Origin: a virus
Taxonomy: Duplodnaviria > Heunggongvirae > Uroviricota > Caudoviricetes
IMG/VR virus record: IMGVR_UViG_3300005663_003096
Length of the DNA: 64,000 nt
Reading direction: 5' to 3' (one strand)
Numbering within the stretch: the stretch's first letter is position 1; each line of letters starts with the position of its first letter. The notes beneath the pieces were generated by a model. It did not search any database and was not told where the DNA came from. It saw nothing but the letters and a program-made list of their open reading frames with translations. The position numbers and the translations under genes were made by a program. This document shows positions 1,522 through 39,609 of the stretch, one piece after another.

Positions 1522-2376
1522 TCAGGCGGACCGTTTCATATGCTTGTACTTCCGATCAAAGCTCGCGAGCTTGGGCAGGTCCATGGCGGCCGGCGAGGCG
1601 CGCATCTTGCCATGATCCAGGAACAGGCTGACAGCGCGATCACGATCGATGATCTTCATCGATTTATCGTCCTGACGTGGGCCCCACCCCACCCGCAGGA
1701 GATAGTTCAACATGCCATCGGGATCGACGCCGTCATCGCGGTAGCCCAGAAGACTTGCCGCGGCGTCTCGCTTGGACATCTTTTTGCCGTCCATCGTGAT
1801 CAAGCCGACATGGGCGAAGTCCGGCATCGCGGCTCCGAGGGCCGTGTAGAGCCCAGCATGGCGGAAGGTATTGGTCAGATGATCCATGCCGCGGATAACG
1901 AGGTTCACACCAAGATCGATGTCATCGACCACGGAGGCGAAATGATAGACCGGCATGCCATCGGCTTTGATTAGCACCTGATCATGCGCCAGATCATGCG
2001 CCTTGGCGCTGGGCAGCTGGTCGCCGGAAATCAGATCATGCCAAGGGGCTGCCGCCCCACCCTTCATCAGTACAGCACCATTATCGGCACGGACCGCCAG
2101 CCCTGCATCTAGAAGCTTTGCAGCCGCGGCGTCATAGATGTCGCGCCGGTGCGACTGGCGGTAGACGGCATCGGGTGCAAGGCCCAGCCAATCGAGACAG
2201 TCGTGGATCACGTCGATCGAGGCGTGGTTGTTGCGCGCAAGATCCGTGTCATCGATGCGCAAGATGAAGCGACCGCCACTGGCGCGCGCTGCGAGCCAGT
2301 TGAAATATGCGGTGCGGGCGGTGCCGATGTGAAAGTCGCCGGTTGGAGATGGGGCGACGCGGGTCGTATAGGTCAT
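1522..2376 (-). CDS. gluQ: glutamyl-tRNA synthetase catalytic-domain paralog (GluQRS/YadB-like; no anticodon-binding domain), ~285 aa
   Basis: Protein from MTYTTRVAPSPTGDFHIGTARTAYFNWLAARASGGRFILRIDDTDLARN with HIGH-type motif (HIGT) and KMSKR. It aligns along the GluRS catalytic core (…VVDDIDLGVNLVIRGMDHLTNT…GKKMSKR…LLGYRDDG…NYLLRVGW) but stops after ~285 aa, as in GluQ-RS. Start set at the ATG at 2376, which has an AAGGA Shine-Dalgarno upstream; the track ORF start at 2538 is upstream read-through. Confidence 0.65.
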   Translation of the reverse strand: MTYTTRVAPSPTGDFHIGTARTAYFNWLAARASGGRFILRIDDTDLARNNHASIDVIHDCLDWLGLAPDAVYRQSHRRDIYDAAAAKLLDAGLAVRADNGAVLMKGGAAAPWHDLISGDQLPSAKAHDLAHDQVLIKADGMPVYHFASVVDDIDLGVNLVIRGMDHLTNTFRHAGLYTALGAAMPDFAHVGLITMDGKKMSKRDAAASLLGYRDDGVDPDGMLNYLLRVGWGPRQDDKSMKIIDRDRAVSLFLDHGKMRASPAAMDLPKLASFDRKYKHMKRSA

Positions 2377-2389
2377 TGCGAAAATCCTT

Positions 2390-2740
2390 TCAGACGCCAA
2401 TTCGATGTGCGTGAGCCTGCAGGTCTTCCGGGTCCGCGATGCGCGAGACGCAGAATGCCATTGGCTCATTGAGAGAAGCCGCAACCAGATCAGGAAACTC
2501 GGCTTTGAGGGTTCGGTATGAAGCCAGGGCTTCTTCATCGAAATACGATCCTATGTGGACCGATGTGGGTAGATAATCTCCGGATGTAGGATCAAAGAGG
2601 CGCTGTGCATCTTGATCTGATCTCTGGCGTGTCTGAAGAACCTTGCTGCGCATCCATGCAGCTGCTTCGCCCCGATCGGGGAAGCGGGGCAGCTCCGGAT
2701 CTGGGGAACGTCGTTTGAAACGGCTCAGCATGGACAGCAT
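2390..2740 (-). CDS. hypothetical protein (~116 aa) between the tRNA genes and the GluRS paralog
   Basis: Sub-ORF of track ORF 2390..2851 starting at MLSMLSRFKRR, just downstream of tRNA-like gene 1. Same strand as, and immediately upstream of, the GluRS paralog. Confidence 0.35.
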   Translation of the reverse strand: MLSMLSRFKRRSPDPELPRFPDRGEAAAWMRSKVLQTRQRSDQDAQRLFDPTSGDYLPTSVHIGSYFDEEALASYRTLKAEFPDLVAASLNEPMAFCVSRIADPEDLQAHAHRIGV

Positions 2741-2756: not shown

Positions 2757-2832
2757 TGGCATCCGCAGCGAGGATCGAACTCGCGTCTTCGGGGTGAGGT
2801 CCCGGTATTCTGACCAATTGAACTATGCGGAC
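2757..2832 (-). tRNA. tRNA-like gene, probably tRNA-Glu(CUC), atypical anticodon arm (C33, 27:43 mismatch); possible pseudo-tRNA
   Basis: Reverse complement GTCCGCATAGTTCAATTGGTCAGAATACCGGGACCTCACCCCGAAGACGCGAGTTCGATCCTCGCTGCGGATGCCA folds as a cloverleaf. It has a 7-bp acceptor stem (G1:U72), D-arm GTTC/GAAT, T-arm GCGAG-TTCGATC-CTCGC, discriminator G and an encoded CCA. The anticodon loop ACCTCAC carries C33. Confidence 0.45.
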
Positions 2833-2845
2833 GTGGTTGTGATTT

Positions 2846-2921
2846 TGGCATCTCCTACGAGTCTCGAACTCGTTTCTGCTGCTTGAAAGGCGGCTGTTCT
2901 AACCGGGTGAACTAAGGAGAC
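2846..2921 (-). tRNA. tRNA-Glu(UUC)-like gene, one C·A mismatch in the anticodon stem
   Basis: Reverse complement GTCTCCTTAGTTCACCCGGTTAGAACAGCCGCCTTTCAAGCAGCAGAAACGAGTTCGAGACTCGTAGGAGATGCCA folds as a cloverleaf. It has a 7-bp acceptor stem, D-arm GTTC/GAAC, a canonical anticodon loop CTTTCAA (U33, anticodon TTC, A37), a perfect T-arm ACGAG/CTCGT, discriminator G and an encoded CCA. It lies 13 nt from tRNA-like gene 1. Confidence 0.55.
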
Positions 2922-2955: not shown

Positions 2956-3223
2956 TGCATGGGTATCGGGCGCGAAACTGAACTCTGGCGTCAGCGCGTC
3001 TCTCGATACCCGTATTGTTCTTCCTGAAAGCGGAACATGATTTTCTTCCTTTGATTTGGATATCTTTTTCGCACAACTCAAAGGGTCCGTCAAGAATAAT
3101 TTTCGCAAGCATCGCAGGGCCACTTATCGAGGCATATATGTGGAAAACCCCAGATCATCGTTTTTCTAAAAAGGGTCACAGACTACCCTGACGGCAACCA
3201 TACCTGATAAAAGAGACCTCCTC

Positions 3224-5486: not shown

Positions 5487-6764
5487 TCAAGGACAGGGCT
5501 CCTCCACTCCCAGGGCTTTTCGCAGTGTGATCTCAACATTCTCACGGCAGGGCCCTTCTGATTTGAGCTTGAGATCATGCCCGCAAAGACCTCCGATAAC
5601 CTCGGCGAGGTTCTCAGTGTCAATCTCTGAAACAAAGGGCCCCTCTCCCATATCCATCACCGAGATCTCGATCTTATCGCCCAGCTGATCGAGGCAGGTG
5701 ACCCCCAGGCCATGATCAATGCCTACGCCCTGCCCTGTGCTGCGCGCGAGATCGGCCGAGATGATGCGGTCCAGCTCTCGGAGGTCCAGAGGTGCATAAC
5801 GGATGGCGTCCTGCCATTCGTTTGGCCTGTTGGTGCGGTCGATCACCTCAGTACCGGGCAAGGGCGTCGTTCCGCGGTCGAGCGGGAACGGCCCTGCCCC
5901 GTGTCGCGTTGCATAGGCCCGGGTCATATAGATGATCTCGAGATCGGTGATCTCGGCGTCTCGAGCGATGTCCACCATATTCTTGGCGCCAGTATGCGAC
6001 CGCGTCACGTGAGGGAATTCTCCGAGGTCCATATCGAGTTGCAACCCTTGGGCGCCCTCAAAGACAATGGCATCGCGATCGCCCAGGGCGCTATCCGACA
6101 TGATCGAGACATACTGCGTAAAGTGGCGCAGATCGTCATAAAATCGCTCAACGACTTCTGGGGCGTTGCCGAGAACAGGCTTTAAATGGTCTGGGATGCT
6201 ATCGAGACCAAGGGCTGCCAGGCGCTGCGGCACCCAAGAACTCGAAATCTCGTCGAGAAATCGTGCGAGGTCAGGCCGCCAAAGGTCATTCATGCAAAGC
6301 ATTGGCCCCTGCTCCTGCCGTTCCAAGGTCTCACCAAAGCCGAGACCACAAGATCCGTGCTTATCACCGCCGCGGAAAATCTCAGCTGCCTGATTGATGG
6401 CCATGTCCCAGGGTGTTGTCACCGCTGTGCGCGGATCGGCCGTGATCTGAATATCCTTTACGCCTTTGCGCGCGAGATCCTCGATCTCAGCAAAGAAGAC
6501 AATCGGATGAGATACAAAGAAGCGGGACAGATGGGTGGCGGCGCCTCGGAAGGATCCGGACCCGATGTGATGGAAGACATGGTGGCGGCCGTCAGCCATG
6601 GTGACGCCGTGGCCCGCCTGTGCGCCGCCATTGGAACGCACGACAGTGACCTGGCGCCCCTGCCCCTCAAGCTGCGCCGTGAGCGCATCTGTGGCCAGCC
6701 CCTTGCCTTCATCACCCCAGCCGGCGCCGATGATCCCACAGGCTTTGCGGATGTCATTTCCCAT
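5487..6764 (-). CDS. adenylosuccinate synthetase (PurA) family protein, divergent paralog
   Basis: Matches PurA signatures: GAGWGDEGKG (P-loop-like GDEGKGK), GGAQAGHGV, FEGAQGLQLDMDLGEFPHVTRSHT, RAYATRHGAGPFP and GVGIDHGLGV. It is 425 aa, clearly divergent from housekeeping PurA. Confidence 0.7.
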   Translation of the reverse strand: MGNDIRKACGIIGAGWGDEGKGLATDALTAQLEGQGRQVTVVRSNGGAQAGHGVTMADGRHHVFHHIGSGSFRGAATHLSRFFVSHPIVFFAEIEDLARKGVKDIQITADPRTAVTTPWDMAINQAAEIFRGGDKHGSCGLGFGETLERQEQGPMLCMNDLWRPDLARFLDEISSSWVPQRLAALGLDSIPDHLKPVLGNAPEVVERFYDDLRHFTQYVSIMSDSALGDRDAIVFEGAQGLQLDMDLGEFPHVTRSHTGAKNMVDIARDAEITDLEIIYMTRAYATRHGAGPFPLDRGTTPLPGTEVIDRTNRPNEWQDAIRYAPLDLRELDRIISADLARSTGQGVGIDHGLGVTCLDQLGDKIEISVMDMGEGPFVSEIDTENLAEVIGGLCGHDLKLKSEGPCRENVEITLRKALGVEEPCP

Positions 6765-23582: not shown

Positions 23583-23636
23583 TTAAAACGCTTAAACTGA
23601 GTAGCGATATAACTTTTGAAACTTACGGACGAATTT

Positions 23637-25340
23637 ATGCTGAAATCGAAAGATGCGTGGCAAGAATATTTCAATGAAGTCAGCTTCCCCCTAAGGGATG
23701 TGAGCAAACATGTCAGCACAGCGGTGTTTGCAGTGTACGATGGAGTGTGCATTTTTTGTAAAGAGCGAAAGGCTGAACACGTAGACCACATCGTTCCGCA
23801 CTCCCTGGGTGGGCCTGATAGATCCGATAATTTCGCTGCATCCTGCACGCGGTGTAATTTGCGAAAACACGATAAATTACTGCCTCTACCGGTTCTCGGA
23901 ATCGCGCTCCTGGAGGCGCGCAGGAAAGCTGAAGATGTAGAGCAAATGATTGCGGAGCTCGAAAATGGGGTTCAATCGACATACAAAGCATATCGATCTA
24001 AAGGGGAACGTGCCGTTCTATTGCACGAAAGCTATATTCTTCATAGATGTGAAGACGGGGGGGGCGTGAGGCCTGTCGCTCGGATCTATTACAAGAATGA
24101 TCCTCGATCTCGGCTAGGTCATCACCATCAGAATGGCGATTTCCCGGATATTCGCTTCTCATACGGCCGCAAATTTCTGAAGTCCAAGATGGCTCACGCC
24201 CTTTCTCCGGGGCTCCCTCTGGAGCCCGAAGAATACAAGAACCCTGAGGACTTCGAGACGCTAAACCTGCTTAGGGATATGGAGCCCGACCATTGGGGGC
24301 GAAGTATCGTGGACTACGCGGTACACCTAACCACCAATCGACATCCCAAGATGAGCGACTACCTCCTCTTCAACGAGACACGGTTCCGCCCTGGAGGTCT
24401 ATTCCTCGCCAAGACGCCCGGAGGTGAGGGAATTGGATACGATATCAGCTTGGCTGATCGTGAGGTGACATTCGATGACGCAGTCCGCTTTCAGACATTC
24501 ATGGATGCACAGGAAGATTTCTGGGCGGAACTTCCCGCTGAACTTCATCATTGCCTTCCAGCCGCTGCTGCTTTGGGGGGCGCTCAGCCGAAGATATGCA
24601 TCGACTGGATGGATGAGCTATGGGTGCTAAAATTGCCAAACGAGCGTCACGTTATCAACATGGCCGCGGCCGAGGCGGGCTGTCTTGACCTTTGCGAAAT
24701 GGCAGGCATTGCCGTACCTGATCGAGAGGTAAGATCCTTTGGACCCCGCTCGAGTGTGTTATTGGTCAAGCGCTTTGACAGAGTTTCCGCGCCTGGAGGC
24801 CGCATTCGCCGCCATATGATATCCTCACTCACACTGCTTGAGCGTCATGAGATGGACCGAGGGGTATCTGGTTATGCTGATATCTACCTAGCACTTCGGG
24901 CTTCCGGAGCGCCCAGTGTCGTCGGTGAGGATCTTTACCGTCGAATGCTGATGAATGTTCTTTGCGGCAATACCGACGATCATTATAGGAACCACGCTTT
25001 TTTCCAGAAAGATGACGGATCATTCACACCAACGCCCGTTTACGATGTCACTCCGACTATTCAAGTATCCCCATCTCGCAGGTTGTTCCTGCATCTCGGG
25101 AGGGCCGGGTGTGGCCGGGATGCGACAGTTGAAAATGCAGTGTCAGCGGCAAGCTCTCTGGATGTCGAACGAGATAGGGCCATTGAGATTGCCAATGAGC
25201 TTAGCTTGATGGTCGCTAGAAGCTGGAAAGATGCGATGAGACGGCATGGCGCGAGTGATGTCTGTATCGAAAGGATGGCGACGAGCTTCTCTGAGGCTGG
25301 CAATACAATCGCCTGCAATGACCCGGGTTTGAACATGTGA
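23637..25340 (+). CDS. HNH endonuclease domain fused to a HipA-like Ser/Thr kinase
   Basis: N-terminal CIFCKERKAEHVDHIVPHSLGGPDRSDNFAASCTRCNLRKHDK is a canonical HNH. The C-terminal part carries the HipA catalytic motifs GAQPKICIDW and CGNTDDHYRNHAFF. Local GC is lower than the flanks. The track ORF starts at TTG 23616; the first ATG is at 23637. Confidence 0.65.
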   Translation: MLKSKDAWQEYFNEVSFPLRDVSKHVSTAVFAVYDGVCIFCKERKAEHVDHIVPHSLGGPDRSDNFAASCTRCNLRKHDKLLPLPVLGIALLEARRKAEDVEQMIAELENGVQSTYKAYRSKGERAVLLHESYILHRCEDGGGVRPVARIYYKNDPRSRLGHHHQNGDFPDIRFSYGRKFLKSKMAHALSPGLPLEPEEYKNPEDFETLNLLRDMEPDHWGRSIVDYAVHLTTNRHPKMSDYLLFNETRFRPGGLFLAKTPGGEGIGYDISLADREVTFDDAVRFQTFMDAQEDFWAELPAELHHCLPAAAALGGAQPKICIDWMDELWVLKLPNERHVINMAAAEAGCLDLCEMAGIAVPDREVRSFGPRSSVLLVKRFDRVSAPGGRIRRHMISSLTLLERHEMDRGVSGYADIYLALRASGAPSVVGEDLYRRMLMNVLCGNTDDHYRNHAFFQKDDGSFTPTPVYDVTPTIQVSPSRRLFLHLGRAGCGRDATVENAVSAASSLDVERDRAIEIANELSLMVARSWKDAMRRHGASDVCIERMATSFSEAGNTIACNDPGLNM

Positions 25341-28755: not shown

Positions 28756-29892
28756 TCAGGCAGAGAAGCGCGCGCGCGACGCTGACAGGGCGTCCACGAG
28801 CCCTTCATGGACCTGTCCCGCCTCGCAGTCCTCTCCCAAGCTCACGAGCTCTGAGAGCGCCGCAGAGCGCCCAGGACGACCCTCTAAGCCAAAGGCGCGG
28901 CGCACGTCCGCCAAAGTCTCCATGGTGAGCACATGGGCGCGCTTGCGGCCTTCTTCGAGGATATGGTCTACCAACTCGATATCAGCTGCGGCTTCGGCGC
29001 GCCGCGCCCGCATGGGCGCCAGCATCTCTTGCAAGATCCCGTCCAGACGCCGCTTCAATACCATGTCGCCGAGCCCACCGGCGCGGTACTGATCCTTGAG
29101 GTCCGCTACAGCACCGCTGTCTGGATCAAAAGCATCGAGCATGGCAAAGACCACATTGCCCTCGACCTTGCCGGGGTCCGAGACCTTCAGATGGCCTGGA
29201 TCGGTGAACATGCGCATGACAGCCGCGCGGATCTCTTCCGGGCTGTCGCGCAGCGCGATGGCATTGCCGGCGGATTTGGACATCTTGCCTGCCCCGTCGA
29301 TGCCCGGCAGCCGCGGCGCGTTGCTCTGCATCAAGGTTGGAGAGACCAGGACCTTGCGCCCAGCCATGCGGTTCACCTTCCCCGTGATCTCACCGGTGAT
29401 CTCGACAAGCGGCGCTTGGTCGGCGCCTGCGGGCACGATGTCTGCGCCAAAGGCGGTGATGTCGGCCGCCTGGCTGACCGGGTAGCAAAGAAAGCCCGCC
29501 GGGGTGCCATCGCCGAAGCCGCGCTGGGTGATCTCTTCACGGATCGTGGGAATGCGCATCAGACGCGGCACGGTGACCAGGTTCATATAGAGCATGGTCA
29601 GCTCGTTGAGTGCGGGCAGATCGGACTGGCGCACGATGGTCACCCGCTCAGGGTCGATGCCGGCCGCGATGTAATCAAGCACCACCTCGCGCACATTGGC
29701 CGCCACATCTGCGGCGCGCCCGGCGTTGTCCGTCAGCGCCTGCATGTCGGCGACCAGGATGGTCACGTCGTTCTTGTCCTGCAGGGCGACGCGCGCCTGA
29801 AGGGTCCCGGCGAGATGGCCGAGATGCAGCGCACCGGTGGGCCGGTCGCCGGTGAGGATGGTTCTGCCTTCGAGGGTAGAGAGATCTTGCAT
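28756..29892 (-). CDS. trpS: tryptophanyl-tRNA synthetase
   Basis: Class I motifs TGDRPTGALHLGH (HIGH-type) and KMSKS. TrpRS-specific segments LVADMQALTD (D-x-Q/H-A-x-T) and YPVSQAADITAFGADIVPAGADQ (compare E. coli YPVLMAADILLY…VPVGEDQ). Start at the ATG at 29892 (MQDLSTLEGRTILTG). Confidence 0.8.
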   Translation of the reverse strand: MQDLSTLEGRTILTGDRPTGALHLGHLAGTLQARVALQDKNDVTILVADMQALTDNAGRAADVAANVREVVLDYIAAGIDPERVTIVRQSDLPALNELTMLYMNLVTVPRLMRIPTIREEITQRGFGDGTPAGFLCYPVSQAADITAFGADIVPAGADQAPLVEITGEITGKVNRMAGRKVLVSPTLMQSNAPRLPGIDGAGKMSKSAGNAIALRDSPEEIRAAVMRMFTDPGHLKVSDPGKVEGNVVFAMLDAFDPDSGAVADLKDQYRAGGLGDMVLKRRLDGILQEMLAPMRARRAEAAADIELVDHILEEGRKRAHVLTMETLADVRRAFGLEGRPGRSAALSELVSLGEDCEAGQVHEGLVDALSASRARFSA

Positions 29893-37275: not shown

Positions 37276-37884
37276 TTAGGGTTCCATATCGTCGTCTGCA
37301 TCGCATGTTTCTTCGGCCGGAGTTTCGACAGGACGCCAGTCTTCGCGCAGACCCTTCTCCATCAGTCCAATGCTGTCCCAGCCGTTGAGCCGAACCAGGT
37401 AGCTGATCTCCCGATCATCGAAGTCGCCAAAGCTCGTGCCCCGGGGCAGCATATGGTCTTTTTGGAACTGCTTTGGATGTTCCAGCCATTTCTCAACTTT
37501 GAGGGCAACGGCCGCGAGGGACTTGTGGAAGCCTTCTTTGTCCTGGATCTCTTCGCCGTTCCGATTGGAGAACTTGCTGCAGGCCTCGCCGACGATCGTG
37601 TCGATCTTCTCCAGCAGAATGGCGGATGTCAGATACATCTCGATCTTGCCTTTAGGCTCATGCCCTTCTGCCAGAGCGTTCCAGGCCTCTGCCTCATCGA
37701 AGCGGCGCCCTTCGAGACCCTCAAATGTTCCGAGTTTCCCGGCATCCCGGGCGCGCTGCATCGCTTTCACGACGAGCTCTTCACGCGCGCAGCGGTGCAG
37801 GTAAACGCCGAAGGTCCGATCATAGGCATGCTCATGATCGAAGATCGGGTCGAAGAAGGCTTTGGTGATCAGTCTGCTTGTCAT
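37276..37884 (-). CDS. hypothetical protein
   Basis: Start at MTSRLITKAF (37884). Confidence 0.4.
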   Translation of the reverse strand: MTSRLITKAFFDPIFDHEHAYDRTFGVYLHRCAREELVVKAMQRARDAGKLGTFEGLEGRRFDEAEAWNALAEGHEPKGKIEMYLTSAILLEKIDTIVGEACSKFSNRNGEEIQDKEGFHKSLAAVALKVEKWLEHPKQFQKDHMLPRGTSFGDFDDREISYLVRLNGWDSIGLMEKGLREDWRPVETPAEETCDADDDMEP

Positions 37885-37984
37885 GAATGGGCTCCTGTGT
37901 TCCAGAACCATATTTCATCTATGCGAAAAAGCGTCTTAGCTTTCCTGTTGACGCGGCATGAGTATTGCGTTTATCACTTACAAC

Positions 37985-38053
37985 ATGATGAACATGATCG
38001 CCTCCACCACGACGACAACAACCACCCATCCCGGGCGGAGCGTTGTCGTGTGA
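37985..38053 (+). promoter_or_regulatory. Thr attenuator leader peptide MMNMIASTTTTTTTHPGRSVVV (seven consecutive Thr codons)
   Basis: 22-codon ORF ATGATGAACATGATCGCCTCC-ACCACGACGACAACAACCACC-CATCCCGGGCGGAGCGTTGTCGTGTGA. The Thr-codon block CGACGACAAC is complementary to the downstream GTTGTCGTG. It is followed by hairpins and an intrinsic terminator, directly upstream of the ThrRS paralog. Confidence 0.65.
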
Positions 38054-38082
38054 GTTGATCTGATCAACACCCAGACTTTGAA

Positions 38083-38107
38083 CCCCGCCGATGACGCGGG
38101 GTTTTTT
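38083..38107 (+). terminator. intrinsic terminator/attenuator hairpin CCCCGC-cgatgac-GCGGGG followed by a T6 tract, between the Thr leader and the ThrRS paralog start
   Basis: Read directly from the sequence: AACCCCGCCGATGACGCGGGGTTTTTTATT. Confidence 0.65.
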
Positions 38108-38151
38108 ATTGTCTCGCGTCCAATCTGATACCCCTCAAAAGGACCAAGACA

Positions 38152-39402
38152 ATGAATAAGAACAACCACAAAGACCTCGATATCCCTCAAGAACAAGGCA
38201 TGGATCCTCTGGACCACCGCGTGCTCGCGCGCCGCCTCGATCTCTATCACATCGAAGAAGATGCGCCGGGCATGATCTATTGGCACGCCGCCGGTTGGCA
38301 GATCTACCGCGAGCTCGAAGATTATATCCGCGGCCGCATGCGGGGCTTAGGTTATGGTGAGGTGCGCTCGCCGCAGCTGTTGCCCCAGTCCCTCTGGGAA
38401 GCCTCCGGTCACTGGGAGAAGTTCGGCGAGAACATGTTCGCCGTGCCGGCGCGCGAGGAAGGCGGCCGCGATATGGCCCTGAAGCCGATGAGCTGCCCGT
38501 GTCATTTGCAGATATTTAACTCGGATCTGCGCTCTTGGCGTGATCTGCCGATGCGCATTGCCGAGTTCGGCCAGTGCCACCGCGATGAGGCTTCGGGCTC
38601 GATGCATGGGCTCATGCGCACCAAGGCTTTCGAGCAGGACGATGCTCATGTGATCTGCGATCCCGGTCAGGTACGCGGCGAGGTTGCGCGTTTCGTTGAG
38701 CTGCTGAAGGAAGTCTATGCCGCTCTGGGCTTTGCTGATTTCGAGGTGGCGCTGTCGCTGCGCCCCGAAAAGCGCGCCGGCAATGATGCGGATTGGGATC
38801 ACGCGGAGCAGGAACTGCTGGGAGCGGCCCTCTCCTGCGGGCTCGACCCGAAGCTGCAGCTCGGCGAAGGTGCCTTCTACGGGCCCAAGCTGGAGTTCGC
38901 GCTGCGCGACAAGAAAGGCCGCTCCTGGCAGTGCGGCACCATCCAGCTCGATATGGTCCTGCCAGGCCGACTGGGCGCATCCTATGTTGGCAAGGACGGT
39001 GCCAAACATGAGCCGGTGATGCTGCACCACGCTGTGTTGGGGTCCTTGGGACGCTTCATTGGTATTCTGCTGGAGCATTGCGAAGGCCGCCTGCCCCTCT
39101 GGCTGGCGCCGGTACAGGTGGCGGTCCTGCCCATTGGGGATGATCAGCGCGACGCTGCTGTGGATGTCATGGACCAGCTGCGCGCCGCGGGGCTGCGCCC
39201 TGCCCTTTTTGATCAATCCGAAGGGCTCGGCCGCCGGATCGTCATGGTCCGCGATCAGTTGATCCCGGTTCAGATCGTGATTGGGAAACTGGAGGTGGAG
39301 CGTGGCGAAGTGATGCTGCAGATCGGCGGGGGCAAAGAGGCGCTGTCGCCAGCCGCGGCCATTGCGCGGATGGGTGAGCTTGTCGGGGTGCCGAAGGGGT
39401 GA
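38152..39402 (+). CDS. threonyl-tRNA synthetase paralog, catalytic plus anticodon-binding domains only (N-terminal TGS/editing domains absent)
   Basis: Aligns with E. coli ThrRS from about residue 225 onward: LDLYHIEEDAPGMIYWHAAGWQIYRELE…KPMSCPCHLQIFNSDLRSWRDLPMRIAEFGQCHRDEASGSMHGLMRTKAFEQDDAHV…QCGTIQLDMVLPGRLGASYVG. 416 aa versus ~640 for full-length ThrRS. Confidence 0.75.
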   Translation: MNKNNHKDLDIPQEQGMDPLDHRVLARRLDLYHIEEDAPGMIYWHAAGWQIYRELEDYIRGRMRGLGYGEVRSPQLLPQSLWEASGHWEKFGENMFAVPAREEGGRDMALKPMSCPCHLQIFNSDLRSWRDLPMRIAEFGQCHRDEASGSMHGLMRTKAFEQDDAHVICDPGQVRGEVARFVELLKEVYAALGFADFEVALSLRPEKRAGNDADWDHAEQELLGAALSCGLDPKLQLGEGAFYGPKLEFALRDKKGRSWQCGTIQLDMVLPGRLGASYVGKDGAKHEPVMLHHAVLGSLGRFIGILLEHCEGRLPLWLAPVQVAVLPIGDDQRDAAVDVMDQLRAAGLRPALFDQSEGLGRRIVMVRDQLIPVQIVIGKLEVERGEVMLQIGGGKEALSPAAAIARMGELVGVPKG

Positions 39403-39609
39403 TGCATAGCAGGCCGCTGAGAGGCGGCCTGCCCTCTTTGATCAATCCGATAAATTTGCCTGTCGGAGTGTTGGGTGAGGTTTCGGTGGCGAGACATGGT
39501 CAACCATTAGTGTGGATAACCTATCGTATCTGCGAAAACCGAGATTGTAGGGTCTTATTTTGCTCATAGCTGAACCGCGAGTTAAACGCCCAACGCAAAG
39601 GTTCAACTA

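Follow-up and report, generated by a model that had tools for sequence, protein, structure and literature searches.

Threonine-codon leader and intrinsic terminator upstream of an accessory, editing-domain-less threonyl-tRNA synthetase: a likely ribosome-mediated attenuator

How is the expression of a spare threonyl-tRNA synthetase (ThrRS) without editing domains held in check until it is needed? The question is raised by a 64,000-nucleotide (nt) stretch of DNA filed as IMG/VR virus record IMGVR_UViG_3300005663_003096 (Caudoviricetes), referred to in its full length as the window, which carries a ThrRS paralog preceded by a short open reading frame (ORF) with seven Thr codons in a row. A preliminary description, made from the sequence alone, had read the ORF and the terminator that follows it as an attenuator that couples transcription of the ThrRS gene to the charging of tRNA(Thr). 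Our comparison of the locus with its homologs supports that proposal through conservation of the arrangement, covariation of the terminator, pairing of the antiterminator and loss of domains from the enzyme, and we consider it likely that a ribosome-mediated leader-peptide transcription attenuator controls this accessory, editing-domain-less ThrRS. The sequence anatomy, its conservation, the terminator covariation and the domain content of the enzyme are demonstrated below.

Anatomy of the leader and the synthetase

The elements of the locus, in order along the plus strand, are as follows.

37948 to 37953, plus strand: -35 box TTGACG of the leader promoter, from direct reading and comparison of homologs
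37971 to 37977, plus strand: -10-like box TTATCA (37971-37976) / TATCAC, 17-18 nt past the -35 box and 7-8 nt before the leader ATG
37985 to 38053, plus strand: leader peptide ORF of 22 codons, MMNMIASTTTTTTTHPGRSVVV, with ATG at 37985 and TGA at 38051-38053
38006 to 38026, plus strand: segment 1, the sensing codons, seven Thr codons in a row (ACC ACG ACG ACA ACA ACC ACC)
38034 to 38040, plus strand: segment 2a, GGCGGAG, 5' strand of the predicted antiterminator, with its partner at 38083-38089 in the terminator 5' arm
38042 to 38050, plus strand: segment 2b, GTTGTCGTG, abutting the leader stop codon and complementary to CACGACGAC (38008-38016) in the Thr block, with which it forms helix 1:2
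38054 to 38068, plus strand: palindromic hairpin GTTGATC-T-GATCAAC, arms 38054-38060 and 38062-38068
38080 to 38107, plus strand: intrinsic terminator, segments 3 and 4, GAACCCCGC-CGATGAC-GCGGGGTTT then T6 (stem-loop 38080-38104, T-run 38102-38107)
38105 to 38156, plus strand: predicted hairpin over the ThrRS ribosome-binding site (RBS) and AUG, UUUAUUGUCU..GUCC (38105-38121) with GGAC..AGACAAUGAA (38141-38156)
38152 to 39402, plus strand: ThrRS paralog, 416 amino acids, catalytic core and anticodon-binding domain
39409 to 39432, plus strand: hairpin after the ThrRS stop codon, a 10-base-pair (bp) stem with 8 GC pairs and a T-poor tail CCTCTTTGAT, a weak terminator call

Every leader element named in the preliminary description is present at its place: the 22-codon, seven-Thr ORF with its own ATG, the complement of the Thr block, the GTTGATC/GATCAAC palindrome and the CCCCGC…GCGGGG-T6 terminator. 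Its spacing of 45 nt from terminator to ThrRS was near the mark, the exact distance from the T-run to the ATG at 38152 being 44 nt, an immaterial difference. Three types of Thr codon are used in segment 1, through which all tRNA-Thr isoacceptors would be read. The upstream neighbor gene (37276-37911) lies on the opposite strand.

The leader promoter was recognized only through comparison of homologs. Of 30 distinct homologous leaders, 27 have a TTGA(C/T)N box at a fixed distance 5' of their ATG, a placement shared by 2.6% of all ATGs in these loci, and in the 27 leaders the layout is TTGAC(A/G), a 17-18-nt spacer, a -10-like hexamer and then 5-9 nt to the ATG. Because this promoter spacing puts the ATG at the predicted transcription start, the window leader mRNA is probably leaderless, with its AUG at about +1; no Shine-Dalgarno (SD) sequence lies ahead of the window leader ATG. 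A longer in-frame ATG at 37958 falls within the predicted promoter and is therefore unlikely to be used, which argues that the 22-codon ORF is the right one.

The preliminary description also held that the enzyme lacks the N1 and N2 domains, and this is borne out by three comparisons. The equivalog model TIGR00418 is matched at 424.9 bits (cut-off 383.65) over model positions 169-540 of 565 only; Pfam finds tRNA-synt_2b and HGTP_anticodon and nothing else; and the protein aligns with residues 242-616 of E. coli ThrRS in its solved structures. Neither Pfam nor TIGR00418 places a TGS (N1) or an editing (N2) domain in the window ThrRS, and the reading frame upstream is closed. Nor are these domains encoded separately: a tblastn search with eight ThrRS N-termini, alphaproteobacterial and gammaproteobacterial, found no TGS or editing domain either within the 64-kb window or in DNA flanking the related loci (its best E was 0.055). 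The zinc ligands C115, H166 and H292 correspond to E. coli C334, H385 and H511 and are invariant in 25 family members, and Y243-G244 and L270, the equivalents of E. coli Y462-G463 and L489, are conserved (G244 invariant and L270 nearly so in the family, both present in the window protein). Near the active site the family has the signature KPMSCPCH, compared with the usual KPMNCPGH. The enzyme retains all catalytic and zinc-binding residues and is best read as a backup ThrRS. Given the hairpin past its stop codon, its gene would, on a weak call, be monocistronic.

We folded the leader RNA free and with the footprint of a stalled ribosome masked. The 136-nt leader region as a whole reaches -50.1 kcal/mol (z = -4.9), and none of 200 dinucleotide shuffles folded as well. 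The terminator is a 9-bp GC-rich stem with a 7-nt loop (hairpin energy -14.7 kcal/mol). With no ribosome on the RNA, helix 1:2, which is 9 bp long in the minimum-free-energy (MFE) fold, and the terminator form together (-47.0 kcal/mol). With a ribosome stalled at Thr codons 1-5 and the terminator 3' arm not yet made, 38034-38044 pairs with 38080-38089 (MFE -19.7 to -21.5 kcal/mol), and GTTGATC/GATCAAC is the apical stem within this antiterminator in every stalled-state MFE structure. A ribosome that has reached the last Thr codon (Thr 7) or the stop codon covers GGCGG, and the fold then contains the terminator. Mutually exclusive folds of the kind that the preliminary description had called for are predicted for the stalled and the free states. 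The antiterminator exists in these predictions, though not as the pairing to which that description had pointed: modeling and conservation support GGCGG (38034-38038), together with adjacent bases, as the partner of CCGCC (38085-38089). When the whole transcript is folded with a ribosome stalled at Thr 3, the two forced states, antiterminator (-25.0 kcal/mol) and terminator (-24.3 kcal/mol), are near-isoenergetic, and the choice between them would therefore be kinetic, as in classical attenuators.

Conservation and pairing across homologous loci

Homologous loci were drawn from a species-representative genome set, annotated plasmids, metagenomes and exact-protein look-ups. A genome-wide protein-pattern scan was dominated by full-length thrS (7 of 80 loci truncated), hence the use of the family-specific motif KPMSCPCH as the metagenome query, although most matches to it were still full-length genes. 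The truncated ThrRS proved to be a large family of proteins of about 390-416 amino acids, with hosts in the Rhodobacterales (Cereibacter sphaeroides, Paracoccus, Pseudosulfitobacter, Roseivivax) and in Mesorhizobium, Bradyrhizobium, Azospirillaceae, Inquilinus, Burkholderia, Caballeronia and one metagenome-assembled genome labeled Polyangiaceae.

A short upstream ORF that holds 4-9 Thr per 9-residue window is found at every one of the 38 truncated-ThrRS loci whose upstream DNA is long enough, whereas in the same scan of full-length thrS a single locus of 109 reaches 4 Thr and none has more. The Thr-rich ORF mostly ends about 75-130 nt ahead of the ThrRS start (171 nt in locus L063); examples are MRQMFASVTTTTTIALRWPVV in Mesorhizobium, MNARFVTTTTTTTKTANGGPGGGCTS in Burkholderia and MRNICSVSMTTVTTSLGGSSPGRMR in a Bradyrhizobium-like host. 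Each of the 30 distinct leaders, which make up our alignment A4, has past its ORF a GC hairpin of the form CCCCGCC...GGCGGGG, mostly with a T-run, and this hairpin keeps a nearly fixed spacing of about 51-55 nt from the last Thr codon. The terminator stem is 95% paired in A4 and has compensatory changes in 5 of its 8 pairs, values that none of 500 column shuffles reached. As far as sequence comparison can tell, the arrangement of ORF and terminator is beyond chance. The peptide outside the Thr run varies freely in sequence and length among clades, and the parts of the leader that are conserved coincide with RNA pairing segments, the codons GGC GGG being the antiterminator strand.

This antiterminator strand, GGCGG(G), is conserved 6-7 nt past the last Thr codon, where it makes Gly codons in many clades, and is complementary to (C)CCGCC in the terminator 5' arm. 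The 7-bp antiterminator helix is 88.9% paired in A4, a value that drops to 30-62% once the partner is shifted by 1-3 columns, and its central 5 bp are paired in 29-30 of the 30 sequences. One position is C-G in 23 sequences, U-G in 3 and U-A in 2; the U-A cases (L004 and L125) are double changes, and in L125 the third partner, in the terminator 3' arm, has likewise changed to U. The covariation score of the helix is matched by only 3 of 500 shuffles. In masked folds across the family, the terminator 5' arm is drawn into the antiterminator in nearly all members.

A further layer may lie at the ThrRS start itself. In the window, the mean probability that the bases from SD to AUG are unpaired is 0.23, compared with 0.48 when the 5' arm of the RBS hairpin is shuffled, and 3% of shuffles are as low; across the window clade the values are 0.15-0.23 and 0.46-0.53 (at most 3% of shuffles as low). 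In the family as a whole, 21 of 28 leaders fall below their own control (Wilcoxon p = 0.007), a modest effect that is significant in the window clade and the Burkholderia clade and not in every clade; by the shuffle measure, Bradyrhizobium-type leaders have no RBS burial. We also considered a coupled switch, in which freeing segment 4 would open the RBS, and we do not claim it: the mean unpaired probability moves from 0.35 to 0.42 inconsistently, with the window unchanged.

Directly after the terminator lies a conserved box (38108-38121; CTCGCGTC in the window, (C)CGTCCGCGC in Bradyrhizobium-type leaders), which is complementary to the terminator loop and 3' arm and also to the first ThrRS codons or the RBS. 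Some loci (L001, L002, L133) have a second T-run after this box.

Proposed mechanism and competing explanations

From this anatomy we infer a translated leader, a leaderless start, an antitermination switch and a physiological role, which would fit together in the following way. Transcription would start at the leader AUG or 1-2 bases away, and a ribosome would read the 22-codon ORF. With Thr-tRNA(Thr) ample, the ribosome would reach the stop codon at 38051 and cover GGCGG and segment 2b; with GGCGG covered, the terminator (38080-38107) would form and transcription would end about 45 nt short of the ThrRS start. If the leader were not translated, the Thr block would pair with segment 2b and the terminator would form as well. 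With charged tRNA(Thr) scarce, the ribosome would stall at Thr codons 1-5 and leave GGCGGAG (38034-38040) free to capture the terminator 5' arm before the 3' arm exists, giving read-through into the ThrRS gene. The hairpin that buries the RBS and AUG would probably damp basal ThrRS translation. The enzyme would thus be induced upon a fall in tRNA(Thr) charging, whether through threonine limitation or because the housekeeping enzyme is inhibited or inactivated.

Several observations weigh against this attenuation mechanism or its proposed role. A simple sigma-70 scan of the window did not call the leader promoter, and it is the promoter spacing that has to carry the argument for translating a putative leader without an SD sequence. 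The U-tract after the hairpin is weak or absent in six loci (L086, L089, L105, L029, L082 and L083). The antiterminator core is short (5 bp with flanking pairs in the window), and its covariation is thin, amounting to 2 pairs and 3 cells, because the motif is nearly invariant. Its duplex energy does not differ significantly from that of shuffled G-rich sequence (window -12.7 kcal/mol, p = 0.29; family median p = 0.135). Since this test is non-significant per sequence, the case for the antiterminator is built on the register-specific conservation and the two compensations described above. As for physiology, a backup role would presume a full-length thrS alongside in the window organism, and a role as an inhibitor-resistant backup would have to be played by an enzyme with no known resistance substitution.

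Control might instead be mainly translational or act through Rho, with the leader ORF and hairpins gating access to the RBS or the loading of Rho and the GC hairpin being structural only. The burial of the ThrRS SD and AUG in the window and several clades fits such control, as do the homologs without a convincing U-tract; the window, however, has a canonical stem with T6, T-runs are present in most homologs, covariation of the terminator stem is strong, and blocking segment 3 scarcely alters the predicted accessibility of the RBS in the window (0.23 vs 0.24). We regard this explanation as unlikely. A small probability of the same order goes to the idea that the ThrRS copy serves specifically for self-resistance or immunity to a ThrRS-targeting antibiotic of the obafluorin or borrelidin type, with the leader inducing it once the housekeeping enzyme has been poisoned. 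Auxiliary synthetases are a classic means of resistance (for example ObaO and, going by the title of the work on it, the leader-controlled trpRS1), an attenuator that senses uncharged tRNA would answer such inhibitors, and the change from KPMNCPGH to KPMSCPCH is close to the active site. On the other hand, G463S, which confers resistance in ObaO, and L489M are both absent, the window protein keeping G244 and L270; no biosynthetic gene cluster was recognized beside the gene, either in the window or at those related loci that were inspected; and the broad, patchy distribution of the family is unlike that of a producer-linked immunity gene.

Could the leader product itself be what is selected? 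The Thr-rich ORF might encode a functional small peptide, acting in trans or as the precursor of a RiPP (a peptide made on the ribosome and modified after its translation), or the terminated leader RNA might mainly be a trans-acting small RNA. Functions of both kinds are described for Alphaproteobacteria (Sinorhizobium rnTrpL and peTrpL), and a C-terminal GGSSPGR(M/A)R motif is conserved within one clade. Since the non-Thr parts of the peptide vary freely while the conserved parts are RNA pairing segments, since no modification enzymes were seen near the gene in the window and related loci, and since a trans role would supplement cis attenuation rather than supplant it, we find this very improbable. 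To a chance short ORF beside the ordinary terminator of a neighboring gene we assign next to no probability: short ORFs are common, and nothing else speaks for it, whereas the upstream neighbor, being on the opposite strand, cannot use the terminator, and the ORF with its hairpin is kept at every one of the 38 homologous loci (six of them with a weak T-run or none) as opposed to 1 of 109 controls, which refutes it. Ribosome-mediated transcription attenuation remains the explanation that we favor.

Relation to known systems, genomic setting and meaning

The preliminary description compared the locus with the attenuator of the E. coli thr operon, and the two would indeed work alike. The Rfam model of that leader (RF00506, Thr_leader) aligns with the window over its whole length (positions 1-118) and shows the elements in matching order, and the two have in common a run of Thr codons, a codon-complementary segment, an antiterminator opposed to a GC-rich terminator, and a T-run. 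With 22.3 bits against a gathering threshold of 55 (E = 0.056 in a 401-nt search), the window leader is nevertheless not a member of this family. E. coli thrL controls thrABC, has Ile codons and is led by an SD sequence, whereas the leader here precedes a synthetase gene, has no Ile codons and is probably leaderless; its GGCGG and CCCGCC motifs are also unlike those of E. coli thrL. At gathering thresholds, Rfam finds two tRNAs and nothing else in the whole window, Thr_leader and Trp_leader being sub-threshold; no T-box reaches gathering in the window, and none is among the matches with E ≤ 10 for 37850-38250.

Leader-peptide attenuators on synthetase genes are exemplified by E. coli pheST. 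B. subtilis thrZ, a second ThrRS gene, is silenced by a terminator and induced by uncharged tRNA(Thr) through a T-box; the logic of a spare ThrRS made on demand is like that proposed here, except that the T-box RNA itself binds the tRNA, where here a translating ribosome would do the sensing. Closest in anatomy to the window leader is the experimentally validated trpL (rnTrpL) of Sinorhizobium meliloti, upstream of trpE(G), with a leaderless ORF, an RpoD-type promoter, a terminated RNA of about 110 nt and three stem-loops, of which SL2 is the antiterminator and SL3 the terminator (PMC6614838). Size and layout match; trpL differs in sensing Trp and serving a biosynthetic target, and has no sequence similarity to the Thr leader. 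That a leader-controlled, editing-deficient extra ThrRS would be new, as first supposed, was an overstatement, since leader control of synthetase genes and of auxiliary paralogs has precedents. Auxiliary trpRS1 of Streptomyces is under ribosome-mediated attenuation according to the title cited in PMC4787780, and is thus, as far as that title goes, an auxiliary paralog under a cognate-codon leader like the window ThrRS, although in Actinobacteria. S. lividans has predicted leaderless leader peptides upstream of thrS, trpS, leuS and alaS (PMC8079986); its thrL, likewise actinobacterial, has two Thr codons and no clear terminator, and its ThrRS is not reported there as truncated. Bacilli have a His leader on a hisS paralog (PMC2965389).

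On the side of the enzyme, the start of the natural protein coincides exactly with that of the engineered E. coli delta-N ThrRS (residues 242-642; PDB 1EVK/1EVL), from which the protein differs in being a natural, regulated paralog with about 50% identity. Residues 20-21 of the window protein align to E. coli 242-243, and delta-N shares with it both domains and the zinc ligands. The delta-N enzyme reportedly mischarges serine, a finding ascribed to Dock-Bregeon et al. in 2000. Crenarchaeal ThrRS without cis-editing (PDB 3A31/3A32) belongs to a split system, unlike the window, where no separate editing protein is found nearby. In Anabaena, T2 is an editing-defective ThrRS duplicate for stress, induced under Zur control in low zinc and served by trans-editing from the housekeeping subunit (PMC4787780); it is likewise a second ThrRS under a specific stress, though without a leader peptide. 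ObaO, the immunity ThrRS against obafluorin, is encoded in the biosynthetic cluster and carries G463S and L489M, of which G463S confers resistance to obafluorin and borrelidin and L489M alone does not; it was cloned as residues 241-637 and is therefore full length (PMC11252418). The window family differs in keeping Gly and Leu at the equivalents of 463 and 489, and with these substitutions absent and no biosynthetic domains in the neighboring genes it does not fall in the ObaO-type class. The ThrRS duplicates named in a review of such synthetases from 2022 are confined to cyanobacterial T2 and eukaryotic ThrRS-L, and in our full-text searches we found neither the truncated proteobacterial ThrRS family nor its Thr leader described, although subscription papers might hold a description. 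What appears to be new is the specific, widespread proteobacterial family; leader attenuators on synthetases and on auxiliary paralogs are known.

The neighbors of the window ThrRS are mostly unannotated, and megablast of the locus against plasmids gave no match. A check for a viral origin gave only three weak matches to the ThrRS motif in IMG/VR and none for the tryptophanyl-tRNA synthetase (TrpRS) described below, and no phage ThrRS exceeds 50% identity. Elsewhere, the truncated ThrRS is found on the conjugative plasmid pM7012 (Burkholderia sp. M701), the megaplasmid pSBC2-1 (Caballeronia) and a 535-kb replicon (Paracoccus sp. ME4), and in islands whose genes are for the most part unannotated, although some of them carry toxin or RNA-repair domains. 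Among its neighbors are AbiEii, HepT/MNT, a Ro/TROVE protein, a CCA-adding-enzyme-like protein, an SmpB paralog and an HD_4 protein. This placement on plasmids and in islands supports an accessory, horizontally mobile gene.

Further synthetase genes with cognate-codon ORFs lie elsewhere in the window.

28756 to 29892, minus strand: TrpRS paralog, 378 amino acids, TIGR00233 at 226.7 bits
30005 to 30055, minus strand: Trp leader ORF MTQDKPICAINWWLPL, with tandem Trp codons, starting 6 nt past a TATGGT -10-like box and followed by hairpins
2991 to 3038, minus strand: Glu-codon ORF MFRFQEEQYGYRETR, with an SD sequence and Glu-Glu codons
2932 to 2955, minus strand: intrinsic terminator CCCGCC-CCTGA-GGCGGG-T7, behind the Glu-codon ORF
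2846 to 2921, minus strand: tRNA-Glu(UUC)
2757 to 2832, minus strand: tRNA-Glu(CUC)
1522 to 2538, minus strand: glutamyl-tRNA synthetase (GluRS)-like protein, 338 amino acids, catalytic domain only, below the cut-offs of the gltX and GluQRS models

The operon of Glu-codon ORF, tRNA-Glu genes and GluRS-like gene may be a third synthetase module under a cognate leader. It is conceivable, though we think it doubtful, that the ThrRS is one module of a mobile translation-rescue island, in which a spare ThrRS, a spare TrpRS and possibly the GluRS-like enzyme would each be silenced by a cognate-codon leader and induced when charging collapses through antibiotics or through toxins that target tRNAs or synthetases; AbiEii/MenT-type nucleotidyltransferases and HepT RNases are indeed encoded beside these genes. 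Since the ThrRS has no editing domain, its induction would then also bring about regulated Ser-for-Thr mistranslation.

Trp leaders also stand upstream of related TrpRS paralogs in L164, L177 (Cereibacter sphaeroides), L178 (Paracoccus sp. ME4), L179 and L180; the Trp leaders end 112-135 nt before the gene and have two Trp codons in 5 of 6 loci and a single one in L177. Judged by identical lengths of their longest contigs, ThrRS and TrpRS paralogs appear on shared contigs in several samples. Their flanks in L167, L169, L171, L172, L178 and L179 hold toxin and repair genes directed at RNA or tRNA, namely AbiEii nucleotidyltransferases, HepT/MNT pairs, TROVE (Ro-like), PolyA_pol/CCA-adding-like and HD_4 hydrolase genes, together with an SmpB paralog and an M78 peptidase. 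In the window, a 574-amino-acid fusion of an HNH endonuclease and a HipA_C kinase domain (23616-25340, plus strand) lies 3.4 kb from the TrpRS paralog, and in L180 (4199-6137) two modules of a helix-turn-helix plus HipA_C directly follow the TrpRS paralog. HipA-family kinases hit GluRS and TrpRS, and the location of HipA_C genes beside spare TrpRS and GluRS-like genes may be meaningful. The same island of the window has a divergent adenylosuccinate-synthetase-like protein of 425 amino acids (5487-6764, minus strand), which scores 120-127 bits with PurA models, compared with cut-offs near 400, and has a weak PurZ match.

The mechanism proposed here is a classical one; the added interest lies in a large, apparently undescribed family in which it would regulate a ThrRS that is naturally without editing. 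In Alpha- and Betaproteobacteria the leader would serve as a sensor of Thr-tRNA charging that is both simple and portable. The co-occurrence with a TrpRS paralog behind a Trp leader hints that inducible backup synthetases carried by mobile elements form a wider class, with a bearing on intrinsic tolerance of antibiotics and toxins that target synthetases. If the attenuator is confirmed, proteobacteria would be seen to keep a spare ThrRS in reserve by ribosome-mediated attenuation, where Firmicutes use T-boxes (thrZ). The enzyme would by design be made when threonine charging is limiting, and the family would offer a natural test of how cells tolerate, avoid or exploit serine mischarging without editing.

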